62,930 nucleotides of DNA from a virus (Duplodnaviria; Caudoviricetes): the IMG/VR virus record IMGVR_UViG_3300009164_000073, positions 1 through 62,930 of that record; one strand, given 5' to 3'. The position numbers and the translations under genes were made by a program. Numbering within the stretch: position 1 is the stretch's first letter; each line of letters starts with the position of its first letter. Below, in pieces: positions 1,296-22,564 of this stretch. The notes beneath the pieces are model-generated. The model had not been told where the DNA came from. It saw nothing but the letters and a program-made list of their open reading frames with translations, and ran no database searches.

Positions 1296-1919
1296 ATGAA
1301 ATTTGCATTTTTAAATCCAACTGTAATAGCATTAGATGATGTTCCACAGGATGTATTCGATAAACTGTATGATATGGTGCACCTAGCACACACGCATTCA
1401 GATCACGATGATTCAGGGAACCCACAGCTAAGTGTTAGAGGCGGACAGCAAATTCAATTAGTCCCTAACGAGTTTGGTCTAGATACTGATGTACTAAAAG
1501 ACTATATTGAAAAAATAGCACAAGAGTACTTAGATTCCATTCAACAACAAAATCCGTTGGTTAATCTTGCGTCAGTGAAACCTTTGTTGATCTCTGCTTG
1601 GACTATTAAACAAGGTCCAGGGGATTATCAAGCACTTCACAGTCACGAGTCGAACCTAAGCGGAAATATCTATATCGATGTACCAGTGTTGGAAAACGCT
1701 AAACCATCAGATAGTCAAATTGAATTCAAGTTACCAATGACCAAAGACATCGCTCATTTTATCTTTTCAGATAGTTGGAGATTCCACCCAGAGAAAGGCA
1801 AGATGATCGTGTTTCCAGGTCACATACCACACACCGTCTATCCGTGGAACGGACAAGGGCATAGAATTGTTTTAGCCTGGGATGTCCAATTAGTGGATAG
1901 AGCGGTTGACATTAAGTAA
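1296..1919 (+). CDS. putative 2OG-Fe(II) oxygenase (TIGR02466-like)
   Basis: HSH...LSGNIY...FPGHIPHTV...R pattern; GGAG RBS. Confidence 0.75.
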   Translation: MKFAFLNPTVIALDDVPQDVFDKLYDMVHLAHTHSDHDDSGNPQLSVRGGQQIQLVPNEFGLDTDVLKDYIEKIAQEYLDSIQQQNPLVNLASVKPLLISAWTIKQGPGDYQALHSHESNLSGNIYIDVPVLENAKPSDSQIEFKLPMTKDIAHFIFSDSWRFHPEKGKMIVFPGHIPHTVYPWNGQGHRIVLAWDVQLVDRAVDIK

Positions 1920-1934
1920 GAAATAACGTATAAT
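1906..1934 (+). promoter_or_regulatory. consensus sigma70 promoter
   Basis: TTGACA-17 nt-TATAAT, perfect consensus. Confidence 0.9.
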
Positions 1935-1940
1935 AAGTTT

Positions 1941-2200
1941 TGTTGTGTAGCAATACACAACCGGTGAAGCGAAAGGTAGAAGAGGATAGACACATAGGAA
2001 TGAGCTTCACGCTTACTCCGAAACTTACAATCCAACTTGAAACTGGATCGTGTTTATGTGTTCCGATCCCTAATAAACTGTCATTTGTTAATCGGAAATA
2101 TATGGACCTCTGTGTATTGTATTTTGCACGTTGTCAACGAAGATTATAACCCTTCATTGTATATTGTCCGGTCTATTACTTGACCTTTCGTAGATCCGTC
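1941..2200 (+). ncRNA. large pseudoknotted RNA at the 5' end of the rpoZ/DIP1984-like transcript
   Basis: Begins at the predicted TSS with GTTGTGTA-GCAA-TACACAAC. Long-range pairs GTGAAGC/GCTTCAC, CGAAAGGT/ACCTTTCG, AGAGG/CCTCT, ATAGAC/GTCTAT, ACACATAG/TTATGTGT, TTCCGAT/ATCGGAA. Confidence 0.65.
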
Positions 2201-2222
2201 ATTTTTAACACAAAGGAGCCCT

Positions 2223-2447
2223 ATGGCTAGGTATTGTTCGGACGAAGCAGCGAAAATGGTTGGCGGAAGATTTAACTTAGTCTTGGTGGCATCACAGAGA
2301 TCAAGAGAACTTAAAAATGGTTCAATGCAGAGAGTAGAAGGCAAAGATGCCACTACCAATGTAACCGCCTTGAGAGAAATCGAAGAAGGCAAATATACAT
2401 TTCAAGAATATTTAGACAAATTGCACAAGAAGGAAAGACAACTATGA
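2223..2447 (+). CDS. rpoZ: RNA polymerase omega subunit homolog
   Basis: MAR N-terminus, GRFNLVLVASQRSREL and TALREIEEGK match omega motifs; AAGGAG RBS. Confidence 0.85.
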   Translation: MARYCSDEAAKMVGGRFNLVLVASQRSRELKNGSMQRVEGKDATTNVTALREIEEGKYTFQEYLDKLHKKERQL

Positions 2448-3019
2448 ACATCTCTTTAAGAAAAGCCAGTGCGTTACAGAACGCAATCAATGATGCTATC
2501 AAAGGCATCAAGTTCAATCTGTCTGTTGAACTCAATGAGTTCCAGGACGTGGCAGAAGAACTAAAGAAAGCCAATGACGAGCTAATGACAAACGACACAC
2601 GTCGTCAGAAACTGCTGTTGGCATTGTACAACATCCGTGGATTGGTCGGCGCTGCTAATGCCAGCGCAGGTATCGATCTCAAGTTGGCAACTGCCGCATT
2701 CGTTGACAAACGTATTGCACAGTTGGAAACTATCGCTCAAGCAGAGCCACATACCGATCTTAAAGTGATCGCTGGCAAGTTGGACAAGATCCGAAATGAC
2801 AAGAGCGACACTGCTCGTAGCCGTATCTACGGTTACAGCGATACAGTATCAACCACTGTGGTTAGCAAAGAGCAGATCAGTGAAGCTAAGGCTGAGATTC
2901 AAAATCTCAAGAAGCAGAAGCAGAAGCTCAATGACGAAGTTCTTGAGTTAAACATCAAGACAGAAGTTCCTCTGACTGACGATGTGGTGGCAACACTACA
3001 AGCAGAAGGACTACTGTAA
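2444..3019 (+). CDS. coiled-coil protein, DIP1984/DUF6847-like
   Basis: All-helical pattern; motifs IR..V..AN and C-terminal KQKLNDEVLELNIKTEV resemble the DIP1984 family as recalled (not searched). Confidence 0.55.
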   Translation: MNISLRKASALQNAINDAIKGIKFNLSVELNEFQDVAEELKKANDELMTNDTRRQKLLLALYNIRGLVGAANASAGIDLKLATAAFVDKRIAQLETIAQAEPHTDLKVIAGKLDKIRNDKSDTARSRIYGYSDTVSTTVVSKEQISEAKAEIQNLKKQKQKLNDEVLELNIKTEVPLTDDVVATLQAEGLL

Positions 3020-3021
3020 TA

Positions 3022-3227
3022 GACCCCGGTTTACTCTTTTACGTTATAATAAGAGCGTCCCTGAAACGATAGAACAGGGGGTACACTAGGACCTGACCTC
3101 ACAGTCCCTCTTTAAGGGATACTGGAAACTGCCTAGGGTTAGGTTTAACACCTTCTCCAGAAGAACAAATGTTATGGACAGAGTAACCGCTCAGTCTAGG
3201 GCCTATGTGGTGTAGGTAGCTAGACAC
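3022..3227 (+). ncRNA. multi-hairpin/pseudoknot structured RNA, unknown family
   Basis: No ORF. Hairpins CTCTT/AAGAG, CCTG/CAGG, CAGT.CCCT/AGGG.ACTG, TAACA/TGTTA, GTCTAG..CCTATG/TGTAGG..CTAGAC, with complementary loops. Confidence 0.6.
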
Positions 3228-3362
3228 TTTATAAAAGCTCTTTGAAGTTTAACTACACTGGAAAAAGCGAGTAACTGCTAAGTCGACTACACAGTGAAAG
3301 TCTCCAGGAAGATACGGAGTTAGACAGTTTGGTTCGATTCCAACAGAGAGCCTCTATAAAGT
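3226..3362 (+). ncRNA. tRNA-like element with long closing stem and bulged T-arm (E3)
   Basis: ACTTTATAAAAGCTCTTT pairs with AGAGAGCCTCTATAAAGT; T-arm GTTTGG-TTCGATT-CCAAC lies immediately 5' of the closing strand; ends 3 nt before a tRNA. Confidence 0.6.
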
Positions 3363-3538: not shown

Positions 3539-3724
3539 ATGATCAACGAAGAAGATACAAGCAGTGAAGATGCACTAGCAGAGTTCTTAGCTAAGGGTGG
3601 TGTAATACAACAGTTAAAACCAAACCAAAGTGGCAGAGTCGATGGTGCAAGCTATTCTTCTTGGTCAAAGAAAAAACCTTCTGTAAGTCCTTTAGCCAGT
3701 CCTCCAGAGGATCAAGACAGTTAA
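3539..3724 (+). CDS. small hypothetical protein
   Basis: AAGGA RBS; AEFLAKGGVIQ motif typical of a small phage/bacterial protein family. Confidence 0.65.
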   Translation: MINEEDTSSEDALAEFLAKGGVIQQLKPNQSGRVDGASYSSWSKKKPSVSPLASPPEDQDS

Positions 3725-3744: not shown

Positions 3745-3820
3745 GCGGGAATAGCTCAGCTGGTAGAGCGATACCTTGCCAAGGTATAGGTCGGGAGTTC
3801 GAACCTCCTTTCCCGCTCCA
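3745..3820 (+). tRNA. tRNA-Gly (GCC)
   Basis: GCGGGAA/TTCCCGC, loop TT-GCC-AA, U discriminator, CCA. Confidence 0.95.
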
Positions 3821-3829
3821 AAGGATAAT

Positions 3830-4396
3830 ATGAAAGTAATAGATCAAAATGATGTGTTTCGCAAATATGATTTTAGCTCAGTGATAACTGAAGCTGACAA
3901 TCAACAGGCAATGGACATTGTTCGAGATATCATAGGCAATGGCAATTACTTTCACAACAGTCCAAAATATCAAACTAAAGAAAACATATTCGCTAGACCA
4001 GAACCCGTTTGGTTAAAGTATAGAATGAGCTTTTTAATGAGTGTGTTTATGTATCTAGGCCGTGAAGTTAAAGTACACGATATGATGGCTTGGTCGTTTA
4101 TGACTAACCTAGCCACAGCAGAAGATCGTGATAAACTTTGGCATCACCATCACAAAAACGGAACCCATATGTTAAGTGGAGTCTTTTATCTACACATTCC
4201 ACCAGACGTAAAAGATCGTGACTATGCTGGAACAGAGATGGCTCCATTCGGTCCTACTCACGAAGAAAAGTTTTTTGTTCGTCCTACCGACAATGCTTGG
4301 TTGATATATCCTTCAAAGGAATGGCATCGTCCAGGCATTGTGCAAAGTGATCAATATCGCTTTATTCTTGCCGCTGACATTGTGATCGAACTATGA
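3830..4396 (+). CDS. putative 2OG-Fe(II) oxygenase
   Basis: WHHH...LSGVFY...YPSKEWHRP...R; start reassigned to the ATG after tRNA-Gly (AAGGA RBS). Confidence 0.75.
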   Translation: MKVIDQNDVFRKYDFSSVITEADNQQAMDIVRDIIGNGNYFHNSPKYQTKENIFARPEPVWLKYRMSFLMSVFMYLGREVKVHDMMAWSFMTNLATAEDRDKLWHHHHKNGTHMLSGVFYLHIPPDVKDRDYAGTEMAPFGPTHEEKFFVRPTDNAWLIYPSKEWHRPGIVQSDQYRFILAADIVIEL

Positions 4397-5100
4397 ACAT
4401 AGCGTGGACACTATATACAGACCCTAAGTATGCTGATGTCAGTCAGTGGAAAGACCTTGTCTACTTTGAACCAGAAGCTCTTTGGCCCTTGGTCATTGAA
4501 GAACGTGGGAGTGCCGATTATACAAAATGTCCGGCTGTTTCGGACTTCTTTGACAATGTATTTGTTATACGTTGCCCTTATGATGTTATAATAAGTTATC
4601 AGCAAGAAGGAGATATGTTTACTACAGATCGACTAGGACAGGATTGGTACAATCAAACGTTCTATCCAAGATTTCCAGTTGTTGATAAAAATGGTAATCT
4701 AGTCAGTTCTTGCATAACACTTCGCATCAATTATCTATTTGTTGCGGATGAGGACGTTGAAATTGAAACCTTCGATGTGCCTTTGCTCTCTAACAATTTA
4801 ACTAGAAACATAAAGATGATTCCGGGCAAGATGAATATACATCGCTGGGTACGGCCTGTGGACTTTACATTCGAAGTAGTAGACTTGACTAAGCCTATCG
4901 AACTAAAGCGTGGTGATCCAATGTTTGCTATCCGCTTTAAAACCGACAGTAAAGTCAAGTTGACTCACATAGACTACAGCGAAGATTTAAAACACGCTGC
5001 TGAAGCTTGTCTAGCTTCTAAGACCTATGTTCCACGCAAAAGCCTCAAGTACAGATACGAGATGGCCAAACGTTTTTTGAAAAATAAAAAATGGTTATGA
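4393..5100 (+). CDS. conserved phage protein (DUF6065-like beta-fold)
   Basis: CPAV...IPG...W.RP...KRGDPM pattern; ATGA overlap with the upstream gene. Confidence 0.6.
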   Translation: MNIAWTLYTDPKYADVSQWKDLVYFEPEALWPLVIEERGSADYTKCPAVSDFFDNVFVIRCPYDVIISYQQEGDMFTTDRLGQDWYNQTFYPRFPVVDKNGNLVSSCITLRINYLFVADEDVEIETFDVPLLSNNLTRNIKMIPGKMNIHRWVRPVDFTFEVVDLTKPIELKRGDPMFAIRFKTDSKVKLTHIDYSEDLKHAAEACLASKTYVPRKSLKYRYEMAKRFLKNKKWL

Positions 5101-5651
5101 AATATCGTATGGATTGTCCGTTTGTAATTGGACAGTTTGAAAAACACAGCGACTTAAAAGAACAGGTACTTTCTGCTATCAATAAAGCGGAAGCTGATCA
5201 TTTAGTTGAGCCAGAAGATAATATGGACATATCTAGGTGTGACTGGAGATTAGGTCGTTGGGATCACACTAGACCGTGGTTTCAATCACTGCAACCTCAT
5301 TGGCACGATCATATGACTGCTGTTAGCAAAGAACTCGGCTACGAGTTTTTTAGACTTAAAGAAATTTGGTTTCAACAGTATAATACAAATGCGCATCACG
5401 GGTGGCACGTACACGGTAGTAATTGGACCAATGTTTATTTTTTAGAAATGCCCGAAGACAGTCCTAAAACTCAATTTATCAATCCATTTAATCAAACAGA
5501 GATAGGAACATTTGAAATCAAAGAAGGTGACATATTAACCTTTCCTAGTTTTGTAGTTCATAGAGCACCGATCAATTTAAGCAATAATAGAAAGACTATT
5601 ATTTCTTGGAATATGGATACTGAAATTGCTCCAGGACTATATCAAGAATAA
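5091..5651 (+). CDS. putative 2OG-Fe(II) oxygenase
   Basis: WFQQY...HGWHVH...FPSFVVHRA...RKTIISWN. Confidence 0.8.
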   Translation: MVMKYRMDCPFVIGQFEKHSDLKEQVLSAINKAEADHLVEPEDNMDISRCDWRLGRWDHTRPWFQSLQPHWHDHMTAVSKELGYEFFRLKEIWFQQYNTNAHHGWHVHGSNWTNVYFLEMPEDSPKTQFINPFNQTEIGTFEIKEGDILTFPSFVVHRAPINLSNNRKTIISWNMDTEIAPGLYQE

Positions 5652-5903: not shown

Positions 5904-5907
5904 TTTT

Positions 5908-5940
5908 GAAAGCCCTGCTGGTTGACAGGGCTTTCGTTTG
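5908..5940 (+). terminator. intrinsic terminator ending the tRNA cluster
   Basis: GAAAGCCCTG-loop-CAGGGCTTTC followed by GTTT. Confidence 0.7.
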
Positions 5941-5950
5941 ATTGTATAAT
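5922..5950 (+). promoter_or_regulatory. sigma70 promoter overlapping the terminator
   Basis: TTGACA-17-TATAAT. Confidence 0.85.
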
Positions 5951-5982
5951 ATATGTTAAATAAATGTTCTTAAGGAGTTGGT

Positions 5983-6234
5983 ATGATTAAAGAGTACGAA
6001 AGCATTCAAGGTGATAATTTAGAAGAAGCTGATATGGCTCAACTGCTATCAGTGACTGCTAATGCAGATGCTGTAGCACGAGTTCGAGCTGCCATTCCAA
6101 CAGGACCTAGCCAAAGCCATTGTGACGAATGCGGAGAAGAAATCCCAATGGCACGTCAAAAAGCAGTGCGTGGCTGTAAGACCTGCATTGACTGCCAAAA
6201 TCTACTAGATAGGATTAAGAAAAATTATGGTTGA
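5983..6234 (+). CDS. TraR/DksA C4 zinc-finger protein
   Basis: CDECGEEIP..RQ.AV.GC.TCIDCQ; N-terminal EEADMA acidic tip; AAGGAG RBS. Confidence 0.85.
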   Translation: MIKEYESIQGDNLEEADMAQLLSVTANADAVARVRAAIPTGPSQSHCDECGEEIPMARQKAVRGCKTCIDCQNLLDRIKKNYG

Positions 6235-8040: not shown

Positions 8041-8066
8041 ATAGGGCCTTAGGGCCCTATTTTTTT
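8041..8066 (+). terminator. intrinsic terminator
   Basis: ATAGGGC-CTTAGG-GCCCTAT + T run; followed by a TAAATA late-type motif at 8075. Confidence 0.75.
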
Positions 8067-8112
8067 GGCTGGCATAAATATATTGAATACCTTACATCCA
8101 GGAGTTTTAGAT

Positions 8113-9741
8113 ATGCCATTACAGATTCGCAGAGGCCTTGACGCGGAAAGACTAGCCCTAACGCCAGCTACAGGCCTAGCACAAGGCGAACTAGTCTATG
8201 TTACAGACTCAAAACGTCTTTACATAGGAACCGGTTCAGCAGGCGAGCATCAAGGCGTTGCTATTACTGGTTATACCAACGAGGACGCACAGGATGCGGC
8301 CGCTGGACTTTTTACCGCTACTACAACTAGCGGTACTACAAATACTAACATTTCATTTGCCTACAACGATTCAGCAAATAAAGTAGTAGCCACAGTTGAC
8401 CTTACCGCATTAGGCACTAACATCGGTCTTAACGGTCATACAATTACAGGTAACGGTAGCATTACTATCAGCGGACTTGTTACAGCAGACCTAAAAGGTT
8501 CTGTTGCAGGTGACGACTCAGTGCTGCTAGTAAACGGTGCCGATTCAACGGTTAACCTAAGCGAAACTATTGTTGCAGATGTTAAACCAAGAATTAACTT
8601 TTCGCCAAATCTAGGAGCAACATCAAGAAGATTCAATGCTCTATTTGTTAGCGGAACAGGTGGTGTTGACGTAGGCGGTGCACTTATCACTGGTACTGGC
8701 GGCATACTTAATCTACCAGCTGGTTCATTAATTAATGGCCGTCCTATCACTCCAATAGACGGTGCGTTTACGGTACTAGATATCAAAGGCTCTGTGTTCG
8801 GTGATGATTCTACACTGCTAGTCGATTCTGTGGCAGGCACCATCAAAGGTGCTGTGGACAGTACTACAGTCAAAGCTAGTTCGTATGTGCAATCTCCATT
8901 AATAAATGCAGGTAGTCTTACACAGAATGGCGTGTTCAATGTTTATAATACTACAGACTTTTTTGGAACATTCTTTACCATAACAACATCTGGTCCCGGA
9001 GCTTTCCTAGATTTCCACGCTTCGAGAGGAACCCTTGCTTCACCTGCTGCATCACAAAATAATGATTACATCAGTGGTATTCTTTTAAAAGGACATAACG
9101 GAACTGCCTATGTACGTGCTGCGGCAGTTGTTGCTCTAGCAGACGGTAATGTCGTTAACGGTGAAGTTCCTGGAAAAGTTGTTATTTCTACTAAGAACTA
9201 TGCAGGTACTTTAGACAATTCATTCACGTTTAACAGTCGCGGAGTATTCGAAGCTCCGGTAATTAAACATACACCATTCGCAGATGCTACTGCACGTGAT
9301 GTGGGTATGAATGCTGGTGCTGGTATGATAGTATATAATACAGCACTTGGCCAATTCCAAGGTTACACATCAGGTTGGTACAGTGTATTAACTTCTGACA
9401 AGATTGGTTATACTACAGGTGTTGGTGGCGCAGTTACACAGATTAATACCAAAGCAACATCAGTTACACTAAACAAGATTTCTGGACAGATTACCTCTCA
9501 TACAGAATCCCTAGCAGGTAATGCCACTGTTATTTTTGATGTTCTAAATAGCACTGTATCACAAACAGATACTATCATTATTAATATGAAATCTTCAGGA
9601 TCAAATATTGGACAGTATCAATGCTGGATCGCTTCTATTGGTAATAACACATTTACGGTTGCTCTAAGAAATATGAGTGGAAGTCCGCTCGCAGAAGCAG
9701 TGACAATGAACTTTGCTGTAATTAAAGCTGTTGCAGCTTAA
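8113..9741 (+). CDS. tail fibre / virion structural protein
   Basis: MPLQIRRG...GELVYVTD..RLYIG N-terminus typical of phage fibres; Gly/Thr-rich beta repeats; GGAG RBS. Confidence 0.75.
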   Translation: MPLQIRRGLDAERLALTPATGLAQGELVYVTDSKRLYIGTGSAGEHQGVAITGYTNEDAQDAAAGLFTATTTSGTTNTNISFAYNDSANKVVATVDLTALGTNIGLNGHTITGNGSITISGLVTADLKGSVAGDDSVLLVNGADSTVNLSETIVADVKPRINFSPNLGATSRRFNALFVSGTGGVDVGGALITGTGGILNLPAGSLINGRPITPIDGAFTVLDIKGSVFGDDSTLLVDSVAGTIKGAVDSTTVKASSYVQSPLINAGSLTQNGVFNVYNTTDFFGTFFTITTSGPGAFLDFHASRGTLASPAASQNNDYISGILLKGHNGTAYVRAAAVVALADGNVVNGEVPGKVVISTKNYAGTLDNSFTFNSRGVFEAPVIKHTPFADATARDVGMNAGAGMIVYNTALGQFQGYTSGWYSVLTSDKIGYTTGVGGAVTQINTKATSVTLNKISGQITSHTESLAGNATVIFDVLNSTVSQTDTIIINMKSSGSNIGQYQCWIASIGNNTFTVALRNMSGSPLAEAVTMNFAVIKAVAA

Positions 9742-13313: not shown

Positions 13314-14162
13314 ATGGAACGATATAAGGTAGCCCCAACATACGAAGAACACTGGTTAGAGACAGATAGACCTCAACCACTATCCGACACAAGAATAGAA
13401 ACTGTTATACAAGGTATTCTAGATGGTCGGTTAGGTATGGATATTACTGATAAAGTTTATACTGATTTTAAAAAAGAAACCAGCGATTGGATTTTTAATA
13501 CTCAACTAAACAGCCTAACCGGGTTTGATTCATTTAATCGATTAGATATTACCCAAGGCTGTACACAGTTTATTGACACTATCTATATGAAAGGTCCCGT
13601 CCAGGTGTTACAGGGTGATTATAAGTATCATCATAGATTAGGCAACTGGGGACGAACCGTTGGCAATCTATCTGCTAATATTCCACTAATCATAGCAATG
13701 CCCTTTCCTAGCACAGGATCGGTACACACTCAAATGGAGGATATATTGAATGAATGTTTGGACAAAAAGATTGAAGTACATATCGACGGCGCTTGGATCA
13801 GTTGCTGTCGTGATATTGATTTTGATTTTAGTAATGATGCTATTAGATCCGTTGGCATCAGTCTTAGCAAAGGTCTTGGTCTCGGCTGGAACCGCGTAGG
13901 ACTTAGGTGGACAAAAGACGACAAGCCAGATGCAATTACTTTAATGAATGATTTTAGAATGAACCTTAGAGCAGTATCAATGATTGGCTTACATTTTATA
14001 AGAAATTTCCCCAGTGATTACCTATGGACAACCTACGGTGATATCTACCATAAAGTCTGCAAAGATTTTAATCTGACTCCTACCAAGAGTATACATCTTG
14101 CACTTAGAAACGGTCAAGCCGTTGGCATTAGCCCATTAATAAGATATGCCTCAAACAATTAA
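13314..14162 (+). CDS. PLP-dependent fold-type I enzyme (paralog of 10277..11176)
   Basis: VHIDGAW, SLSKGLG, RVGLR; shares QGCTQ.ID with its paralog. Confidence 0.7.
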   Translation: MERYKVAPTYEEHWLETDRPQPLSDTRIETVIQGILDGRLGMDITDKVYTDFKKETSDWIFNTQLNSLTGFDSFNRLDITQGCTQFIDTIYMKGPVQVLQGDYKYHHRLGNWGRTVGNLSANIPLIIAMPFPSTGSVHTQMEDILNECLDKKIEVHIDGAWISCCRDIDFDFSNDAIRSVGISLSKGLGLGWNRVGLRWTKDDKPDAITLMNDFRMNLRAVSMIGLHFIRNFPSDYLWTTYGDIYHKVCKDFNLTPTKSIHLALRNGQAVGISPLIRYASNN

Positions 14163-15414
14163 TCCACCAACATTTTGTATGCACCCATTTACTGGGCTTG
14201 CTACTAGAGAAGACGGCGCAATACAGGTATGTTGTCGTAGCCATCCTATTGGTAATATAAAAGATAACACCCTGGAAGAGATCTGGAACGGAGACAATAT
14301 GAAACGTATCCGTAAGCAAGTGCTCACAGGGTATCGACCAAAGGAGTGTGAGCCCTGTTTTAGTTTAGAAGACCAAGGTGTTGAAAGTTTACGGCAACGA
14401 CACGTACTTGGAAAAATCCCAGAGGCACGGATTAATTTATATCCCAATGCCGTTAGTACAATGCGTAAAGATCATACAATGCCGTTTGAGATTCCTACTA
14501 TGGAACTTAAACTTAATAACTTATGTAATTTAAAATGTCGTATGTGTCATCCGGGGGATAGTACCGCTTGGAATGATTGGGCAGAAGTTAAAGAGTTTTA
14601 CAAAGGTGAAGGGCAGGTTATATTCGATATCGTTGAAGAACACAATTTAGAAAAGAAACCGTTACTAGATAAGTTTGAAGATAATCCCAATTGGTGGATT
14701 AGTTTAGAAAAGAACTTACCCTACTTCCGACGTGTGGAATTCGCAGGAGGCGAGCCTCTAATGGATCCGCAACACTTTCGAATATTAGATATGCTTGCTC
14801 CGTATGGTGATCAAATTGAAATCAAATATGCCACTAACTTAACCACGCTAGGTAAGAGCAATCGCACAGTTTGGCAATACTGGCCTAAATTTAAATCAGT
14901 AGCGGTAAATGTAAGTATTGACGGTATTGGCACTAGCTATGAATACATTCGCGGCAATGCCAGCTGGGCTGAACTTATAAACAACATTAAACAAATACAA
15001 ACTATTCCAAATATTAGTCGCATTGTGGGAGCAGTGGCTGTGCAGGTCAGTAACATTCTCATACTTGACAAAATGATAGAATATTTTTTAAACGATTTAG
15101 GTATTGTATTTTATACTAATATGGTACAATATCCCAACGTATTATCTGCACAAGTTATTCCTAACGAATTAAAATCAATAGCTATTATTCGTTTAAAAGA
15201 TGTTAGGGAATTAGTTCCGACTTTTAAATTAGTAAAAGAACATCCGATGTTAGAAGAGCTAACTTACAAACAAATCGACGGCATAATTAATTTCATCCTA
15301 GCAAAGGATAATACCCACTTGTGGAATGATTGCATAGAGTATAACCGTCGATTAGATGTCACAAGAGAACAGAGTTTCTTTGATGTAACTCCAGAGTTTA
15401 AACCCTATGTTTAA
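14146..15414 (+). CDS. radical SAM protein with N-terminal twitch/SPASM-like domain
   Basis: CNLKCRMC, AGGEP, SIDG; N-terminal FC.HP...CC...C..C. Confidence 0.9.
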   Translation: MPQTINPPTFCMHPFTGLATREDGAIQVCCRSHPIGNIKDNTLEEIWNGDNMKRIRKQVLTGYRPKECEPCFSLEDQGVESLRQRHVLGKIPEARINLYPNAVSTMRKDHTMPFEIPTMELKLNNLCNLKCRMCHPGDSTAWNDWAEVKEFYKGEGQVIFDIVEEHNLEKKPLLDKFEDNPNWWISLEKNLPYFRRVEFAGGEPLMDPQHFRILDMLAPYGDQIEIKYATNLTTLGKSNRTVWQYWPKFKSVAVNVSIDGIGTSYEYIRGNASWAELINNIKQIQTIPNISRIVGAVAVQVSNILILDKMIEYFLNDLGIVFYTNMVQYPNVLSAQVIPNELKSIAIIRLKDVRELVPTFKLVKEHPMLEELTYKQIDGIINFILAKDNTHLWNDCIEYNRRLDVTREQSFFDVTPEFKPYV

Positions 15415-16303
15415 AGTTACCAGTGCTTGGCCGCATCAGGATCAATTAAAGGTTGAATGGAATCTTGGCAAAAGGTGCAACTACGATTGTACATATTGTC
15501 CGGCAAGCATACACGATCACCATAGCCCTCATACTGACATAAATTTGTTGGAGGCAACTGTAGATAAACTGTGTGCGATTGGTAAGCCATTGCGCATTAG
15601 CCTAACAGGAGGCGAACCTTGTGTACACCCGGACATTGAAGACTTATTAGAATACTTTAGACGCAAAGATGTGTTCTGGGTAAATTTGACAACTAACGGT
15701 ACACGCCCCAGTAACTGGTACCTACAAAATGAGATGTTTTTCAACCACTTAGTGTTCAGTCTGCATTTCGAACACGATTGGGAACGGGTGCATAGAAATA
15801 TCATACAGTACCAGGCAGGGACTCAAACAGATTTCTTTGTCAATGTTATGGCACATCATAAACATATGGACAGTGTTCGCAAGGTAGTTAAAGAGTACAG
15901 CGATCGTGGAATAAAATATGCTGTTAGGCGTATTCGATGGACTGACGGCGACCACAATATATTTGATGATTTAAAATATGAAGGTAAAGATCTTGAATGG
16001 ATACTGAATCAAGATTCTACTGTAAAACCCAATTGTAGGATAGATGAGTCAGAAATAATGCACAGTAACGATGTTATTAAAAAACATTTAAATCAATTTA
16101 AAGATTGGTCTTGCAACGCCGGACTCGAAAGTCTTATGATAAATTGGGACGGTGATGTTCATCGTGCGACCTGTAGAGTCGGTGGCAGTCTAGGTAACAT
16201 TTATAAAGGTAGCTTTGTTGTTCCTAGCAACCCCATTGTATGTACTAGAGACTGGTGTACCTGTGCTGCAGATATTCCATTAACAAAAATTAAAAATGAT
16301 TAA
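15407..16303 (+). CDS. radical SAM protein, C-terminal SPASM/twitch
   Basis: CNYDCTYC, TGGEP, TTNG; C-terminal C..G...C...C.C. Confidence 0.9.
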   Translation: MFKVTSAWPHQDQLKVEWNLGKRCNYDCTYCPASIHDHHSPHTDINLLEATVDKLCAIGKPLRISLTGGEPCVHPDIEDLLEYFRRKDVFWVNLTTNGTRPSNWYLQNEMFFNHLVFSLHFEHDWERVHRNIIQYQAGTQTDFFVNVMAHHKHMDSVRKVVKEYSDRGIKYAVRRIRWTDGDHNIFDDLKYEGKDLEWILNQDSTVKPNCRIDESEIMHSNDVIKKHLNQFKDWSCNAGLESLMINWDGDVHRATCRVGGSLGNIYKGSFVVPSNPIVCTRDWCTCAADIPLTKIKND

Positions 16304-17402
16304 AACTACCGCAATTAGACTGCTAAATCCTACAGCAATGTCGGTTACCTGGGATACTGGTCGCAGATGCAACTACGATTGTACATATTGTGAATCAACA
16401 AGACACGACTTAAAAAGTTCATATCACAGTTTTGAAGAACTTAAAAATACATATCATTTTATCAAAGAGTGGACCACAGAATACAATAGCAGACGAAAAG
16501 AAAACAAAGGAGTTAACATTGTGTTCACTGGCGGTGAACCAACAATTAATCCTAATTTCTGGAACCTTGTAGAATATATTAAAAACGATAGCGACAATTT
16601 TAATTTACAATTAACTACTAACGGTACTTGGGGCCCTAGTTATAGAGAAAAAATATTAAAATATCTCGACTGTGTTACTATCAGTTGGCACGCCGAAGGA
16701 CCGGCTAATCTCAAGCAACGAGCCATAGATAACATATTACATCTAAGCAACAGTGAAATCGTATTGCAGGTTAATCTTATGCTACACGCTGATCACTGGG
16801 ATGAAGCTATGGACGTCTGCAAGTTGCTAGATGACAATAATGTAAAGTATAATCCTAGACCAATTGGAGATGGAAACATAACTCGAGTTGGGTGGTTTAT
16901 CGATGCCGATGGCACTAATCGCAGAACATCTCATACCTATAGTAAAGAACAGCAAGAATGGTTTTTTAAAAAAATGGGAAGTAGTTTGCCTGGGTCTGAA
17001 AAAGCAGAAGGTAACCAATTAGGACGTGGGTGTTGTGGAGGTCGCTGCCTCGAAGCAAAAGTAGACGACCAGTGGCAAACTGTTAAGTTAGTTAATACTG
17101 AATTTAAAGGTTGGCAATGTATGGTTGATTGGTTTTTCCTACACATCGATCAACATACAGGACTAGTCTATCATCATCAAACCTGTCAGGCATTGCATAA
17201 TCAAAAAAGAGGAGCACTAGGACATCTAGACGATAAAGGACAAATGCTAACTGATCTTAAATTAAGATTAGAAAATCCTAGTCCTATTATTTGTCCCAAT
17301 CAAAGATGCGGGTGTGGAATGTGTGTTCCTAAGGCACGGGATCCTGTAGATTTTAAAATTATGTGGCAGGCGCTAACAGATGTGCCAGCTCAGGAAATGT
17401 AG
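16296..17402 (+). CDS. radical SAM protein, Cys-rich C-terminus
   Basis: CNYDCTYC, TGGEP; GCCGGRC and CPNQRCGCGMC. Confidence 0.9.
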   Translation: MIKTTAIRLLNPTAMSVTWDTGRRCNYDCTYCESTRHDLKSSYHSFEELKNTYHFIKEWTTEYNSRRKENKGVNIVFTGGEPTINPNFWNLVEYIKNDSDNFNLQLTTNGTWGPSYREKILKYLDCVTISWHAEGPANLKQRAIDNILHLSNSEIVLQVNLMLHADHWDEAMDVCKLLDDNNVKYNPRPIGDGNITRVGWFIDADGTNRRTSHTYSKEQQEWFFKKMGSSLPGSEKAEGNQLGRGCCGGRCLEAKVDDQWQTVKLVNTEFKGWQCMVDWFFLHIDQHTGLVYHHQTCQALHNQKRGALGHLDDKGQMLTDLKLRLENPSPIICPNQRCGCGMCVPKARDPVDFKIMWQALTDVPAQEM

Positions 17403-18789
17403 ATTTAAAATCTGTGCCGCGCTGATTATCCATTACTGTAATATATTCTCTAAAATCGGGTAACAAATGAGTATGGTCTTGAGCATCCATCCAATCTAGT
17501 ATACCTTCCCAGCGTTTCCAACCATAGGGATTTTTTTCCCAAAAATCTGCATCTTGAGTATAGTTATCCCATAACCAGTCTTGCAATTCAGCAAACAGTT
17601 TACGAACTTCGAATTTATCTTCCTTAGGCAGCACACGTAAACTTAACCACGTAGGAATCCACAATAAATGAACACTGGCTAATCCGCCACCGGTAACCTG
17701 TCCTGCAACATTTAATTCAAAATTTAATTTTTTAAATCCGCTTCGGACTTTCCATTTAAGCAATTCGGGTATATGTTTTATATTCAGTATTTGCGCTGCC
17801 AATTCAATAGTGGTAGTAATATTATCAGGAGTGTTCTCTAATCTATGCAAATTTTTCTCTACAACATTAAAATCCATCGGATAGCGAATGTAATTTACAC
17901 GATCCCCAATTCCATCAAGACTTACTGCAAATTTAACTTTTCTAAAATGCTTCCATATATTAATGATAGTTTCATCTATTAAGATTCCATTAGAATTATA
18001 TCTAAGAAGTATTTTATCAGCATAGCCCCTACGAATTATTTCTTCAAGAAATATTTTGTGTTCTTTAATTAAAAGAGGCTCACCGCCAGCAAAGTATATT
18101 TGCTTTAAGTTTGGAATCTGGTTGTATATATCGTTCCAAAAAGATGGATGTTCGTACCAATAGTTGTTGAACTCTTTTTGTTCCCAGAACATTTGATTTT
18201 TTATCTGAGAACTTTGAAAAATAGGAAATACTTTTTTGTGCTCTGGAACCCACATTGAACTATCGTGCGGACTACACATAATACATTTTAGATTGCAGGT
18301 ATGACCTAATCGTAAATCTAGATACTCTAACTTATAAGGAACAGTGCCGTCTTCTTCAGTATTATTAACTAGTTCGGGAATATTAGCATTTTCAGTTTTA
18401 AACCACGTAACTGTTTCCCAAATCCTCTTACTAGCGATCTCAGACTCTTCTTCATCGAAACATTTCTTACAACTTGCAGGAATTTTTCCCTCGAGCATAG
18501 TTGTTCTAACAGACTTCATATAGTTATTATTAAATGCACCCGCCGGCGTATCTTTGCCGAAGTTAGTTGGAGTACCATCTTCTTTTTTTACAAGGCCTAC
18601 TCCGTAGTCACCGGTATCTGCTCCACTGGCGTTTGCTACACAGCACAGTCGAGCATCGCCGTTTGGCCTTGTTGCTAGGTGATTCCACGGCAGCACACAA
18701 AAAGATTTTGACCCAGACAGGTCTTCAATAACTTTTTGCCATTTACCTATTTCGGTTGTTTCAGGTTGAATCCAGTATACATCTTTCAT
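17359..18789 (-). CDS. radical SAM protein with N-terminal twitch-like domain
   Basis: CNLKCIMC, AGGEP, SLDG; start set at MKDVYW. Confidence 0.9.
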   Translation of the reverse strand: MKDVYWIQPETTEIGKWQKVIEDLSGSKSFCVLPWNHLATRPNGDARLCCVANASGADTGDYGVGLVKKEDGTPTNFGKDTPAGAFNNNYMKSVRTTMLEGKIPASCKKCFDEEESEIASKRIWETVTWFKTENANIPELVNNTEEDGTVPYKLEYLDLRLGHTCNLKCIMCSPHDSSMWVPEHKKVFPIFQSSQIKNQMFWEQKEFNNYWYEHPSFWNDIYNQIPNLKQIYFAGGEPLLIKEHKIFLEEIIRRGYADKILLRYNSNGILIDETIINIWKHFRKVKFAVSLDGIGDRVNYIRYPMDFNVVEKNLHRLENTPDNITTTIELAAQILNIKHIPELLKWKVRSGFKKLNFELNVAGQVTGGGLASVHLLWIPTWLSLRVLPKEDKFEVRKLFAELQDWLWDNYTQDADFWEKNPYGWKRWEGILDWMDAQDHTHLLPDFREYITVMDNQRGTDFKSTFPELAHLLAPAT

Positions 18790-18829
18790 AATAGTAATTA
18801 TGTCTATATAACTGCCGCTAAATATTTCT

Positions 18830-19327
18830 ATGTTATACAAAGGTAATTTTTCAAATATTTTTGAGCCCGAGGCATTGCAATTTATTCTTGCAAATCAAGG
18901 GGACCTTCGCCCGCAGACTAATATCGATAGTTACCAATTGGATAATTTCGGGAAGTGGAAATCTGCTGGGTATGATATGAACAAAATACGTTGGGAAGTA
19001 TTTTCCGGAGATACACCTAAATTTAATTTTAAAATATCTCTGCCATTCAAAGGAACGATCAAATGGTGGTTTGCAAAACTACATCCAGGCGATATGTTTC
19101 CGTTACATTTAGATACGTTTCCGGATAATACAAATGTAAGACGATATTGGATAGCCTGTCAAGATTATATACCTGGACATATTTTTGCCTACGATGATAA
19201 AATTTTAACAGGATATAAAGCTGGTGATATTTTTATGTTCGATCACAGCACTGTGTTACACGGATCTGCTAATATAGGATTTACTCCTAAGATATCTTTA
19301 CAGGTTGCTGTTACAGATGATCAGTAA
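18830..19327 (+). CDS. 2OG-Fe(II)/AspH-like oxygenase
   Basis: PG.MFPLHLD...HGSANIG..PK. Confidence 0.7.
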   Translation: MLYKGNFSNIFEPEALQFILANQGDLRPQTNIDSYQLDNFGKWKSAGYDMNKIRWEVFSGDTPKFNFKISLPFKGTIKWWFAKLHPGDMFPLHLDTFPDNTNVRRYWIACQDYIPGHIFAYDDKILTGYKAGDIFMFDHSTVLHGSANIGFTPKISLQVAVTDDQ

Positions 19328-20103
19328 TGAGTAAGATGTGCGATGCCTATCTTGGCACGAAACGCCTGGGTGAATACCCCGTCAACTCTTAGACTAAATG
19401 TCTGTTTGTTTATCTTGCCGCCTGAATGCCAATCTTGATCATTGAAGAAAGTTGCGTGACTATTAACTAGTACCTTTGTATCCGTTTCAGCATCCCATAT
19501 ATAAAAGGGCTTGTCTAAGTTAGTACGCAAATGGATGAACTCGTGTCTATGATTAAAGTAGTCGTGCTCATCAGGTAGTATTAAATCACGATGCATTGCC
19601 ATTTGACAATCGTGTTCTGCTTTAAAGAATATAATACGACCTAGATATTCGAAGACCCCATCGGTGACTAGATTTTCTAACCACTCCTTAAGTTCTGGAA
19701 ATAATTGAGAATCCTTCGTCCATTCTTTTTCTTGAAATCGTGTTTCCCATCCACCCTCTTCAGTTTTTAAAAATATAAACTGATATGGGTCATACGCACC
19801 TAATGCCAACTTAAGAAACAGCATAAATTGATCACGATTCTTGTACTCTCCTAATTCTTTACCCAAAATTCTAATTTCGTGATCTTCAGGGAGACTGTAA
19901 TATTCCTCTAATGCCTTATACGGCGGCTTAAATGATAATTCGTAGACACCTTCAAATCCTCCAGGCTTCTCCATATTACCTTCTTTCTTATGTTCAGCCA
20001 GAACAAGACCTTTGCATATCTTATAATGCAGAGATTTAAATTCTTCAATATTAAGATAAGAATCTAAATTGAGAAATGGTTTGTTGTCAATACCGCGTAT
20101 CAT
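19321..20103 (-). CDS. non-heme Fe oxygenase-like protein (HxD...H)
   Basis: MHRD...FNDQDWH...RVDG; paralog of 11169..11885. Confidence 0.6.
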   Translation of the reverse strand: MIRGIDNKPFLNLDSYLNIEEFKSLHYKICKGLVLAEHKKEGNMEKPGGFEGVYELSFKPPYKALEEYYSLPEDHEIRILGKELGEYKNRDQFMLFLKLALGAYDPYQFIFLKTEEGGWETRFQEKEWTKDSQLFPELKEWLENLVTDGVFEYLGRIIFFKAEHDCQMAMHRDLILPDEHDYFNHRHEFIHLRTNLDKPFYIWDAETDTKVLVNSHATFFNDQDWHSGGKINKQTFSLRVDGVFTQAFRAKIGIAHLTHY

Positions 20104-20132
20104 ATTGATATTTACCACATAAATATCGCACT

Positions 20133-20804
20133 ATGAATATAACCGATTGGAATCTTTATTACAACCTCGAAGACACTGAATACGTCAGAGCCAACTTAGT
20201 TTACACTCCCTATGTAAGTCCAGACAATACAACTTTCTGTATGAGCTTTAATCGAGACCGTGCTTACCACAAAAATGAAAATGAAAATATTCTATGGTCT
20301 GAAGAATTACTAACCGATAGATTTTTAAAAGAAATAAAATTTCACAAACAGGCCTCTGCCACAATTCCCACTTTACAGATCAAAGATATTGATCACAAAG
20401 AAAGAAAAATCTTTTTAGAATGGCACGGCAATGATTTTTATATGCAAGGACTAAAAGAAGGTGGGTATAATAAAGTATTACCTAATTGGCAAGAGCAATG
20501 GATTGCATTGATAGAGAAAATGCGAGCTGCGGATATATTTAAAATTAGCTTACATCCCAACAGTTGGGTGGCACATCAAGGAACACTGATTCCATTTAAC
20601 TGGTTCTTCTGCTATCGAGAGAACGATGAATCTGTTACCCTGAGATCCCTGTTGATACAAATTAGCTCTGGACGGCAAGAGAAACTAGGAACAATAGATC
20701 TAGATCAATTACAGAGTCCTAGACAACTACAGCAAATAGCATTTAATAGTTTTAGACATAACTATCCCACGGAGTTAATTGACGATGTTTTATCAAAATC
20801 TTAA
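20133..20804 (+). CDS. protein-kinase-like fold, degenerate catalytic motifs
   Basis: FLKEI helix, P..IKDID, IFLEW hinge, SLHPNS (catalytic-loop position), FNWF (DFG position). Confidence 0.45.
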   Translation: MNITDWNLYYNLEDTEYVRANLVYTPYVSPDNTTFCMSFNRDRAYHKNENENILWSEELLTDRFLKEIKFHKQASATIPTLQIKDIDHKERKIFLEWHGNDFYMQGLKEGGYNKVLPNWQEQWIALIEKMRAADIFKISLHPNSWVAHQGTLIPFNWFFCYRENDESVTLRSLLIQISSGRQEKLGTIDLDQLQSPRQLQQIAFNSFRHNYPTELIDDVLSKS

Positions 20805-21831
20805 AGAACTAGAAATAGAAACCTCATCAATATGTAATGCGGCTTGTCCGATGTGTCTTAGAGATTTAACTCCTAATGACAAAACTTGGTTTGAAGAAAC
20901 ATATCTCGATGCTGATTTTTATGAGAATAGAATTCCTAATCACGTTTGGGAGAAAATAACATCAGTACTGTTTTACGGAATACTAGGTGATCCGTGCGCT
21001 GCCCCGAATTTTTTAGAAGTTTGTGAAGTTGTAAAACGCAAAGCTCCACACGCAGCGATAAGAGTATCTACTAACGGTGGGCTTCGTTCCGAAGATTTTT
21101 GGAAAAAACTTGCGGCAATCTTTACTAAAGATGACACAGTTACTTTTGCTATAGACGGGTTACGAGATACTAACCACATCTATAGAGTTAACGTAAATTT
21201 TGACAAAGTAATGGCTAATGCAAAAACTTTTATCAACAGTGGTGGCAGGGCGTGGTGGCAATGGATTGGGTTTAAACACAATCAGCATCAGGTAGAGATT
21301 GCAAAATCGTTGGCAAAAGAAATGGGCTTTGATAGATTTTACGAAAAACCGTCTCATCGATTTGTGTTTGCTGATAACATCGGTGGGGTAAAATACGGTG
21401 GGGATAATGTGTTATTAGAATCTCCTACGGTGAACGCCCATCCTCTAGTATATACACCAAAATTTAATTTTGACGAATGGTATAAAGATACAAATTCTAG
21501 TAATATTAATTGCTATGCTCAAGATCGAGAAAGTATCTATATAGATGCAAATGGGAATTTATTTCCGTGTTGCTCGATGGCGTCTGGACAAATGTACAAT
21601 CGAGTCATTGATTTTAAAGACGGATGGAATGATATTTGGGATCGATTCGGAGGCGACAAAATTAATCTCAAACATACGCAATGGGACGACATTGTCAATG
21701 GCCCGTTCTTTACAGGAGTAATGGATCGATGGGGAGCAGATTACACCAACGGAAGATTAGCTGTTTGCGCCAGTGTATGTTCTGATAGTAAATTTAAATT
21801 CAATAATAAGGTTTACACAAAAAAAACTTAA
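20785..21831 (+). CDS. radical SAM protein with SPASM/twitch domain
   Basis: CNAACPMC, G..GDP, STNG, AIDG, PCC. Confidence 0.9.
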   Translation: MFYQNLKELEIETSSICNAACPMCLRDLTPNDKTWFEETYLDADFYENRIPNHVWEKITSVLFYGILGDPCAAPNFLEVCEVVKRKAPHAAIRVSTNGGLRSEDFWKKLAAIFTKDDTVTFAIDGLRDTNHIYRVNVNFDKVMANAKTFINSGGRAWWQWIGFKHNQHQVEIAKSLAKEMGFDRFYEKPSHRFVFADNIGGVKYGGDNVLLESPTVNAHPLVYTPKFNFDEWYKDTNSSNINCYAQDRESIYIDANGNLFPCCSMASGQMYNRVIDFKDGWNDIWDRFGGDKINLKHTQWDDIVNGPFFTGVMDRWGADYTNGRLAVCASVCSDSKFKFNNKVYTKKT

Positions 21832-22391
21832 TGGCTGCTGTAAAATTAATTGAACACGATTTAACGTTTGTCCACATACCTAAAAGTGCTGGGTCGAGTG
21901 TTGTTCGATGGTTGACTAGAATGCCATATCAAATGATTAAAGGTCATCCGTCGTTGACTATAATTAAAGAACAATGGCCAGTTACGCAAACTTTTGCTGT
22001 TGTAAGGAATCCTTGGGCACGAATGGTTAGCGCATATTTCTATCTAAAACAATACGGATTCTATTGGGAAGATAACAATATCGCTTCCGTTGAAGAATTT
22101 CCAACCTGGAATGATTTTGTTGATCGGCTAGACTATGATACTAAAAGTTGGAATACCTTAACTACCAATCAATGTGAGTGGATTACTGATGGAGTGACCT
22201 ATCTTTTTAAAGCAGAAACACTAGATCAAGAATTCAATGTAATACAAAAACTACTACGTCGCGAAGATCCGTTACCCTATATCAATACATCGGACCACGA
22301 AGACTATCGTACATACTATACCGATGCTCAGAAGGCAAAAATAGGTCGAGCCTTTGAAAAAGACATTGACCTATACAAGTACACGTTCTAG
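21831..22391 (+). CDS. sulfotransferase (family 2-like)
   Basis: HIPKSAGSS (5'-PSB), VRNPWARMVSAY (3'-PB). Confidence 0.85.
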   Translation: MAAVKLIEHDLTFVHIPKSAGSSVVRWLTRMPYQMIKGHPSLTIIKEQWPVTQTFAVVRNPWARMVSAYFYLKQYGFYWEDNNIASVEEFPTWNDFVDRLDYDTKSWNTLTTNQCEWITDGVTYLFKAETLDQEFNVIQKLLRREDPLPYINTSDHEDYRTYYTDAQKAKIGRAFEKDIDLYKYTF

Positions 22392-22564
22392 GGAATTTTA
22401 TTCCAAACTGTTTCGTGTATGTAATATAAGATAGTGTTTACTATCATCTGCGCTATTGCAATTCCTGTAGCGACTACAAGCTGTCCAGTAACAACATAAG
22501 AAATTACAAAAGTCGAAGTAGATCCAACTAGTCTCCAAGTTAAGGTCTTTATCAGTGTTCTCAT
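22388..22564 (-). CDS. DUF2061-like small membrane protein (58 aa)
   Basis: MRTLIKTLTWRLVG...LYYIHETVWNKI; not in the track. Confidence 0.75.
   Translation of the reverse strand: MRTLIKTLTWRLVGSTSTFVISYVVTGQLVVATGIAIAQMIVNTILYYIHETVWNKIP

Follow-up and report, generated by a model that had tools for sequence, protein, structure and literature searches.

What do the roughly 260 nucleotides (nt) between a strong promoter and a small operon in the tRNA island of an uncultured phage encode, and what would the product do? The sequence in question is part of IMG/VR virus record IMGVR_UViG_3300009164_000073, which was analyzed over its whole length of 62,930 nt, referred to in the following as the window, and has a CheckV completeness of 17%. 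The first 6 kb of the window form the tRNA island, with 14 tRNA genes and small protein genes in between. A preliminary description of this DNA, made from the letters alone, had proposed that a perfect promoter drives a knotted RNA of about 260 nt ahead of rpoZ. We find that the segment, which we call RNA1, is a genuine non-coding structured RNA of about 260 nt, located behind an early sigma-70 promoter or, in a few relatives, behind a tRNA. The proposal of a structured RNA of this size made from a strong promoter is borne out by a 12/12 promoter, a covarying fold of 62 base pairs (bp) and 98 distinct sequences of the element. As to its function, we tentatively favor, with a probability of about 0.42, a leader that binds protein and in addition builds up as a stable RNA.

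A blastn search with positions 1296-3100 against 50,697 phage records gave no match, and RNA1 has no cultured relative in that collection. Viral contigs searched with the two proteins encoded downstream, rpoZ and p191, yielded 29 and 80 loci, and blastn found window positions 1929-2209 kept in almost all of these protein-derived loci, at 67-97% nucleotide identity. In an alignment of 48 unique sequences, the promoter hexamers, a hairpin and long invariant blocks were visible. Two scans independent of the proteins, with short DNA patterns of 18 and 25 nt, yielded further loci. The matches of the 18-nt pattern in viral contigs were a mixture of true and chance matches and were filtered with an nhmmer profile, which gave 212 matches at E ≤1e-10 in 313 loci, representing 98 distinct sequences, 76 of them full length. 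The homologues all come from one phage lineage, and the numbers of sequences given below do not equal numbers of independent events. The same element occurs in two near-complete relatives, one of 353 kb (98% complete) and one of 364 kb (100% complete), and each encodes a major capsid protein of the T4 Gp23 type (PF07068, at E 2.6e-96 and 9.5e-82, respectively). Because of these genome sizes and capsid proteins, sequence comparison places RNA1 in a lineage of T4-like jumbo phages of ~350 kb. Each complete relative carries one copy.

The pattern scans also returned other material. The 17 loci that had the 25-nt pattern and no profile match were unrelated sequence on reading, mostly one stretch that is conserved in another phage group. 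An exact 25-nt match to the 3' motif of RNA1 in an unrelated phage group (L151, L166, L188, L210, L250, L258, L272, L278, L282, L306 and L312) lies inside an apparent conserved coding stretch, on the other strand, and is a chance match amplified by a family. When one genome per prokaryotic species was scanned, six pattern matches were obtained; one was a true RNA1, on a 7.5-kb contig of a metagenome-assembled genome, and the remaining five were unrelated sequence.

The promoter upstream of RNA1 (Table 1) matched the consensus at all 12 positions, with the 17-nt spacer that had been claimed for it. The start expected from this promoter, at about 1941, lies at the foot of the 8-bp GCAA hairpin (1942-1949/1954-1961, loop 1950-1953) to which the preliminary description had assigned +1. 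Relatives share this arrangement: a promoter with at least 10 of the 12 consensus positions ends 0-1 nt before the element in 69 of the 76 distinct full-length homologues. Five others of the 76 have no promoter, and there the element starts directly after a tRNA instead.

When folded by itself, the window RNA reached -75.9 kcal/mol (z -3.62) and beat 200 of 200 shuffles. RNAalifold was run on 47 sequences, one row having been dropped that had a foreign 5' part and was otherwise identical to another row. This gave a nested fold with 49 pairs, of which 22 showed compensatory changes. Adding P7, which is optional, the inner helix of P4 and a tentative helix of 4 bp extended this fold to 62 pairs. 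The extended structure was 95.1% paired across the alignment, compared with 82.3% for column shuffles and 30-44% when the partners were slid by 1-3 columns. Both sides had changed in 33 of the 62 pairs, with a covariation score of 0.392 against 0.164, and none of 500 shuffles attained the observed pairing or covariation values. Structural conservation in homologues, the absence of which the preliminary description had named as refuting its proposal, is thus present.

A small gene or a chance fold is one alternative reading of this locus; an open reading frame (ORF) of 69 amino acids (aa) overlaps RNA1 at 1940-2149. The frame is open in only one of 62 full-length homologues, which is the window itself. 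The segments aligned to it have lengths in all three classes modulo three (29, 23 and 10 sequences), so the insertions and deletions do not come in threes, and variability at the three codon positions (0.197, 0.208 and 0.225) has no codon-position bias. The preliminary description had taken the ORF as non-coding, and these results agree with it. Together with the strong covariation, they refute the coding or chance reading, to which we give next to no weight.

The helices are listed in Table 1. The loop of the 5'-terminal hairpin P0, GCAA in the window, is GCAA or contains GAAA in 45 of the 47 sequences. The purine-rich block at 1962-1991, which makes up the 5' strand of the closing stem, is the most conserved part of RNA1; the stem was 99-100% paired over the alignment cells, with changes on both sides in three pairs of P2 and one pair of P3. 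Changes on both sides were also found in four pairs of P6 and one of P6b, and these two helices enclose a large loop. The peripheral hairpins are more variable: P4 differs in length and sequence among clades, and P7, in which length variation reduced the paired cells to 63.9%, is absent from six of the 47 sequences.

The covariation gives RNA1 a branched, nested fold and not the heavily pseudoknotted topology that had been proposed, in which the purine-rich segment paired piecewise with five distant partners. Two of the five partners, 2171-2176 and 2183-2190, were retained, within the covariation-supported helices 1985-1991/2171-2177 and 1969-1977/2183-2191. The other three have different partners: 2004-2010 forms part of a local hairpin, the partner of 2054-2061 is 2099-2107, and 2107-2111 is the end of that same helix. 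On the evidence of the alignment, then, RNA1 is predicted to be a nested multi-branch structure. A search for covarying column pairs that might reveal extra helices or pseudoknots was swamped by clade structure. The tentative 4-bp helix, 2026-2029/2113-2116, is partly supported, with one pair that is UA in 21 sequences and GC in 20; its other pairs are 75-77% paired and shift register among clades. A local hairpin at 2112-2129, present in the minimum-energy fold of the window, was not kept in the homologue alignment.

Table 1. Coordinates of RNA1, its promoter, helices and repeats, and the genes that follow.
Feature	Position	Strand	Details
Sigma-70 type early promoter	1906..1934	+	TTGACA 1906-1911, 17-nt spacer, TATAAT 1929-1934; 12/12 consensus match
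RNA1, structured non-coding RNA, ~260 nt	1941..2200	+	Ends inferred; covariation, conservation, ORF not kept
P0, 5'-terminal 8-bp GNRA hairpin	1942..1961	+	7/8 pairs changed on both sides; 98.4% of cells paired
Closing stem, 5' strand	1962..1991	+	P1 1962-1964, P2 1969-1977, P2b/P3 1981-1991; pairs with 2171-2198
P4, variable hairpin	1997..2019	+	Inner helix 2001-2005/2011-2015: 5/5 pairs changed on both sides, 92.7% of cells paired
P5 hairpin	2031..2047	+	2031-2035/2043-2047: 5/5 pairs changed on both sides, 96.8% of cells paired
P6 and P6b	2052..2107	+	P6 2052-2060/2099-2107; P6b 2063-2066/2092-2095; 99.5-100% of cells paired
Four YUG(Y) heptads, probable single-stranded track	2110..2136	+	TG at 2111, 2118, 2125 and 2132 invariant, spacers vary
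P7, optional variable hairpin	2139..2155	+	Between heptads 4 and 5; absent in 6/47 sequences
Two further YUG(Y) heptads	2157..2168	+	TG at 2158 and 2165
Closing stem, 3' strand	2171..2198	+	Invariant CTTGACCTTT, also readable as -35-like TTGACC
A/U-rich tail and Shine-Dalgarno sequence of first gene	2199..2222	+	AAGGAG 2213-2218; from sequence
Phage rpoZ-like gene, RNA polymerase omega, 74 aa	2223..2447	+	PF01192 E 5.7e-10, TIGR00690 E 1.8e-9, both above cut-off
p191, 191-aa all-helical protein	2444..3019	+	Start overlaps rpoZ stop; no known family

The preliminary description had pointed to repeated (A)TTGT units in the 3' half, and the repeat turned out to be stronger than described. Invariant TG dinucleotides lie exactly 7 nt apart within each of three groups, the first of which (2079 and 2086) is carried by the P6/P6b loop at 2078-2088; the second and third comprise 2111, 2118, 2125 and 2132, and 2158 and 2165. 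The consensus heptad is (U/C)UG(U/C) followed by three variable bases, in eight copies. Four or more TG in a row, each exactly 7 nt from the next, were found in 62 of 62 full-length elements, compared with 11 of 2000 dinucleotide-preserving shuffles of the window element, and TG spacings of 5, 6, 8 or 9 nt never gave more than three in a row. The repeats are retained in the most divergent members. Where P7 is absent, the 7-nt phase runs on across 6-7 repeats, and the alignment reads as an optional P7 that is looped out without disturbing the heptad phase. The heptad stretches are probably single-stranded, because the spacers vary without compensating changes. A period of 7 nt cannot arise from coding, and among the natural RNAs known to us it is unusual to find an invariant motif repeated at exactly 7 nt on a folded scaffold. 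It is a pattern that would be expected for a protein touching the same short motif several times. By their exact spacing and invariance, the repeats do look like binding sites for an oligomeric protein, as had been suggested.

Downstream of RNA1, the constant partner is p191 and not rpoZ, the gene that the preliminary description had treated as the key neighbor. The p191 gene follows in 96 of the 97 distinct elements that have a 3' end, and in the sole exception only 33 nt of sequence are left. The order is RNA-rpoZ-p191 in 50 elements, RNA-p191 in 31, with rpoZ absent within 1.7 kb, and RNA-p191-...-rpoZ in 15, so that rpoZ intervenes only in the 50. The first start codon lies 11-22 nt past the end of the element model in 84 of the 96 homologues, and no intrinsic terminator was called between RNA1 and the first gene. 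Within 10 nt past the closing stem, four or more consecutive T occur in 23 of 47 sequences, and 11 of 47 have tails of TATAA(T) instead. In the homologues, a -10-like hexamer is found 16-18 nt past the TTGACC in the closing stem, as a perfect TATAAT in 12 of the 76 and with a 5/6 match in nine; the window's own hexamer matches at 3/6. Judging from these hexamers, some members of the family may express the operon from inside the RNA1 gene. On one 6.9-kb IMG/VR contig (L046/L256), two diverged RNA1-p191 units stand in tandem, ~2.5 kb apart, which could be a real duplication or a chimeric assembly.

The p191 protein itself had no sequence match in Pfam, NCBIfam, PHROG or PDB, and a protein-atlas search returned unnamed viral clusters only. 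It belongs to a very large protein family from environmental phages, which comprises 2,148 clusters at 90% identity and 884 at 50% and is widespread in large phages. The AlphaFold2 model of p191 is an all-helical bundle, with a predicted local distance difference test (pLDDT) score of 95.7, and its best PDB match was 3kdq, an uncharacterized protein of Corynebacterium diphtheriae (Foldseek E 0.078; VIA Z 9.7 over 141 residues). The label "DIP1984-like" used in the preliminary description thus retains a weak fold match and has no sequence-family match behind it. Look-alikes among predicted viral proteins, all unnamed, come from CcrColossus, Vibrio phage Vp_R1, Erwinia phage pEa_SNUABM_47 and two giant viruses. 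The homologue in Caulobacter phage CcrColossus (28% identity) has only ~60 nt upstream, hence no RNA1-like leader. The family is near neutral, with a median isoelectric point (pI) of 6.0, which does not favor RNA binding.

RNA1 is present in freshwater RNA libraries. Part of the region 1890-3030 was matched by 14 RNA runs, and four of them, labeled freshwater or lake water, were examined (X1-X4); the other ten, with small shares, were set aside. All four contained RNA1 contigs, including contigs confined to 1994-2190. In X1, two such confined contigs had word depths of 780 and 1685, compared with 42 for a contig of the upstream gene and 11-19 for p191 contigs; in X2, element contigs had depths of 21-147, compared with 6.5 for a p191 contig. 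These depths are a hint that RNA1 accumulates, and a hint only, since a conserved RNA recruits more strains than its flanks do, and each depth is one figure per contig that can neither rank the parts of a transcript nor map RNA ends. One X2 contig enters the Illumina adapter 4 nt past 2191, near 2195. In X3 and X4, contigs on the 3' part of the element continue into a start region downstream, with loose ends at 2203 and 2205, respectively, and RNA1 is probably co-transcribed with the next gene. No contig at a likeness of at least 90% covered 2232-2414 of rpoZ in the four runs, which has no bearing on its expression.

Co-transcription with the operon, and a hairpin that starts at the predicted +1, would also suit a passive role, in which RNA1 merely stabilizes the 5' end against 5'-end-dependent decay or serves as an entry or exit site for an RNase, with no specific ligand. 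Such a role has no need for 260 nt with invariant single-stranded motifs at a 7-nt period, kept over 98 distinct sequences, and we consider it very improbable.

In the reading that we favor, with RNA1 as a leader that is bound by protein and builds up as a stable RNA as well, the heptad track would offer several docking sites to a protein specific for single-stranded RNA, one that is oligomeric or binds cooperatively. This protein could be encoded by the phage, possibly as a product of the operon, or by the host. Occupancy of the track would set the fate of the attached operon mRNA, through translation, stability or cleavage, while the compact folded part, guarded by the 5'-terminal hairpin and the closing stem, would persist as an abundant stable RNA. 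Support comes from the linkage to the operon: the presence of p191 in 96 of 97 elements over three gene orders, the short distance to the start codon, the lack of a called terminator, the tandem RNA1-p191 units and the contigs that continue into the downstream start region. The invariant 7-nt heptads speak for protein binding, and the contigs confined to 1994-2190, with the one that enters the adapter, suggest that RNA1 may persist as a stable RNA.

Several points weigh against this interpretation. No binding protein was found, and p191, near neutral by its family's median pI and without a recognizable RNA-binding fold, is a poor candidate. When the alignments were inspected, no alternative pairing able to occlude the ribosome-binding site was seen to be conserved. 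The promoter-like site inside the 3' end of the RNA, counted as present in 21 of the 76 homologues, could express the operon without RNA1. The setting in a tRNA island suits a free stable RNA equally well, and the contig depths, as said, cannot rank the parts of the transcript. Finally, with a single lineage at hand, the linkage between RNA1 and p191 may partly be just inherited gene order.

The upstream context, counted in the 66 elements with 400 nt of upstream sequence, bears on the most serious alternative. In five of these, the 3' end of a tRNA abuts the element directly, with no promoter in between. In 31, a tRNA on the same strand ends 44-47 nt upstream and the promoter alone lies between; the gap is 36 nt in one element and more than 50 nt in eight. 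The remaining 21, the window included, have no tRNA on the same strand within 400 nt upstream. In the window itself, a 2OG-Fe(II) oxygenase gene has been inserted upstream of RNA1; it is one of three paralogous putative 2OG-Fe(II) oxygenase genes (PF13759) spread across the island (1296-1919, 3776-4396 and 5091-5651, + strand). Many relatives (L006, L036 and L046 among them) have a short stem, with a T run behind it, immediately past the CCA end of the preceding tRNA, and the loop of this stem contains the -35 box of the RNA1 promoter. Combined terminator-promoter stem-loops have been reported for T4-type early promoters, and from its sequence this arrangement reads as one.

This context suggests that RNA1 could be a free, trans-acting stable RNA of the tRNA island, made or processed like a tRNA, that works alone or in a ribonucleoprotein. 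It might, for instance, sponge up a host RNA-binding protein or form an assembly of RNA only; the adjacency of p191 would then be mere gene order. Apart from the tRNA fusions and the close upstream tRNAs, the 5'-terminal GNRA hairpin and the long closing stem fit such an RNA, as do the contigs confined to the element in all four runs, one of which ends in the adapter near 2195. The operon could be transcribed on its own from the internal promoter-like site, and p191 is followed by another structured RNA, described below, which precedes further tRNAs. There are also precedents, in that the small stable RNAs of T4 are annotated as fused to the end of tRNA-Arg, and the phage RNAs ROOL and GOLLD are often encoded near tRNA islands, according to bioRxiv 10.1101/2024.12.08.627333. 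Other observations fit this picture poorly. No terminator was called before the next gene, the start codon of which is so close in 84 of the 96 homologues, the association with p191 is kept in three gene orders and through one tandem duplication, RNA contigs bridge the element and the downstream start region, and 21 of the 66 elements have no nearby upstream tRNA on the same strand. We regard a free stable RNA as possible, if rather unlikely. The present data cannot separate it from the protein-binding leader, and both options offered by the preliminary description, an abundant early non-coding RNA or a very large cis-regulatory leader, are still open.

The tRNA island holds three putative RNA-polymerase-binding proteins. 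Apart from the omega homologue encoded by rpoZ, a 61-aa ORF between tRNA genes (3539-3724, +) resembles the RNA-polymerase-binding domain of SutA (PF20661, E 1.5e-5), with a score of 24.6 bits that is below the 29.3-bit cut-off. At 5907-6234 (+), the loop of a terminator-like stem (5907-5936) contains the -35 box of a second 12/12 promoter (5922-5950), and this promoter drives an 83-aa DksA/TraR C4 zinc-finger protein (PF01258, above cut-off).

With such neighbors, RNA1 could also be imagined as a riboswitch, in which the junctions bind a small molecule and closing of the stem, beside the U-rich tail, controls read-through into, or translation of, the omega-p191 operon. A nucleotide or alarmone would be a plausible ligand because of the genes related to RNA polymerase nearby, which encode the omega, SutA-like and DksA/TraR proteins. 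Like riboswitches and other large cis-acting leaders, RNA1 has a conserved core, with highly conserved nucleotides in junctions and internal loops, covarying helices, peripheral hairpins (P4 and P7) that are variable or optional, and a position that is always upstream of the same operon; the T runs after the closing stem in 23 of 47 sequences would fit as well. However, RNA1 exceeds nearly every known aptamer in size, such an exact heptad repeat is not known from riboswitches, and both the repeat architecture and the tRNA fusions are atypical. No riboswitch family of Rfam matched, no canonical terminator was called, and inspection of the alignment found no conserved sequestering hairpin, leaving no recognized expression platform; nor are the TATAA(T) tails in 11 of 47 sequences a U tract. 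We therefore think a riboswitch unlikely.

The same neighborhood raises a broader idea, since RNA1 heads an omega-p191 operon and the island also encodes the SutA-like and DksA/TraR proteins. RNA1 might be the RNA part of a new phage system that reprograms host RNA polymerase or the synthesis of stable RNA, with the YUG track and the rigid scaffold recruiting or titrating a polymerase-associated factor, possibly p191. We consider this improbable. If true, it would make RNA1 the phage equivalent of RNAs that regulate polymerase, like 6S, though built on quite another plan.

To see where RNA1 stands among known RNAs, the whole window was compared with Rfam 15 at gathering thresholds, which matched only the 14 tRNAs; the region 1850-2300, searched at E up to 10, gave only two chance microRNA matches of 14-15 bits. 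The families that RNA1 thus failed to match include 6S, tmRNA, RNase P, SRP, GOLLD, ROOL and the riboswitches. By this comparison, RNA1 is a new RNA class, absent from Rfam 15. No description of it was found in the literature by full-text searching. A 2023 survey of structured-RNA candidates in IMG/VR (PMC10690425) reports 8,495 motifs of 29-151 nt, which may include fragments of RNA1.

Four kinds of known system invite comparison, and RNA1 is filed under none of them. GOLLD and ROOL are, like RNA1, phage-borne and highly structured, with no function assigned, and RNA1 shares their setting, since it lies inside or beside a tRNA island; in the window, 14 tRNA genes surround it. In Rfam 15 it had no match to either family, even with E relaxed to 10, and it differs from both in its heptad repeat and its fixed downstream protein gene. 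GOLLD RNAs are also often longer than 800 nt, according to bioRxiv 10.1101/2024.12.08.627333, compared with ~260 nt for RNA1.

The second comparison is with the stable RNAs species 1 (rnaC) and species 2 (rnaD) of T4, likewise with no function assigned, which close a tRNA cluster and are annotated directly after tRNA-Arg, as RNA1 stands directly after a tRNA in five of the 66 elements. These RNAs are 119 and 139 nt long and end in tRNA-like arms, whereas RNA1 is not tRNA-like and is usually driven by a promoter. The nhmmer profile of RNA1 did not match rnaC or rnaD, and blastn found only words of 7-10 nt in common.

The third comparison is with leaders that bind protein. HutP, on the hut mRNA, and TRAP, on the trp leader, are oligomeric proteins that bind leaders at regularly spaced triplets, and the autoregulatory leader of T4 gene 32 has regularly spaced short motifs in single-stranded RNA beside a structured nucleation element. 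RNA1 likewise has regular short motifs in predicted single-stranded RNA upstream of a gene, and by analogy it may work as these leaders do. It differs from these leaders in its motif, YUG at 7 nt in eight copies and three groups, and in its large folded scaffold; no cognate protein was found, and neither a terminator nor an antiterminator was called for RNA1. The fourth comparison, with riboswitches, is given above.

RNA1 occurs in an abundant, uncultured lineage of ~350-kb T4-like freshwater phages. For the protein-binding leader that we favor, the heptad repeat is a concrete handle for locating the binding partner. The coupling of RNA1 to p191, in a neighborhood of polymerase-binding genes, is the first functional lead for the p191 family. 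RNA1 is also a further case for the question why phages put large structured RNAs beside tRNA genes.

Directly after p191 and before a tRNA-Met gene, the window has a second conserved structured RNA, at 3078-3235 (core ~3112-3232). It was found in 39 distinct homologous segments, and an alignment of 14 sequences had compensatory changes in at least two hairpins; Rfam gave no match to 3078-3235. RNA-library contigs were found on 3034-3200; adapter sequence immediately precedes 3044 in X4 and immediately follows 3190 in X2. The stretch that follows, 3236-3355, was not called as a tRNA by ARAGORN. Its end is formed by a T-arm-like GGTTCGATTCC, an acceptor-like pairing is possible, and this brings to mind the tRNA-like 3' terminus of T4 rnaC.

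Elsewhere in the window, a 558-aa protein with the N-terminal domain of a major tropism determinant (PF18454) is encoded at 8065-9741 (+), and a cluster of at least five radical-SAM-like genes, recognized by PHROG matches, occupies 14146-25487. One single ORF of 3,262 aa extends from 39039 to 48827 (+).

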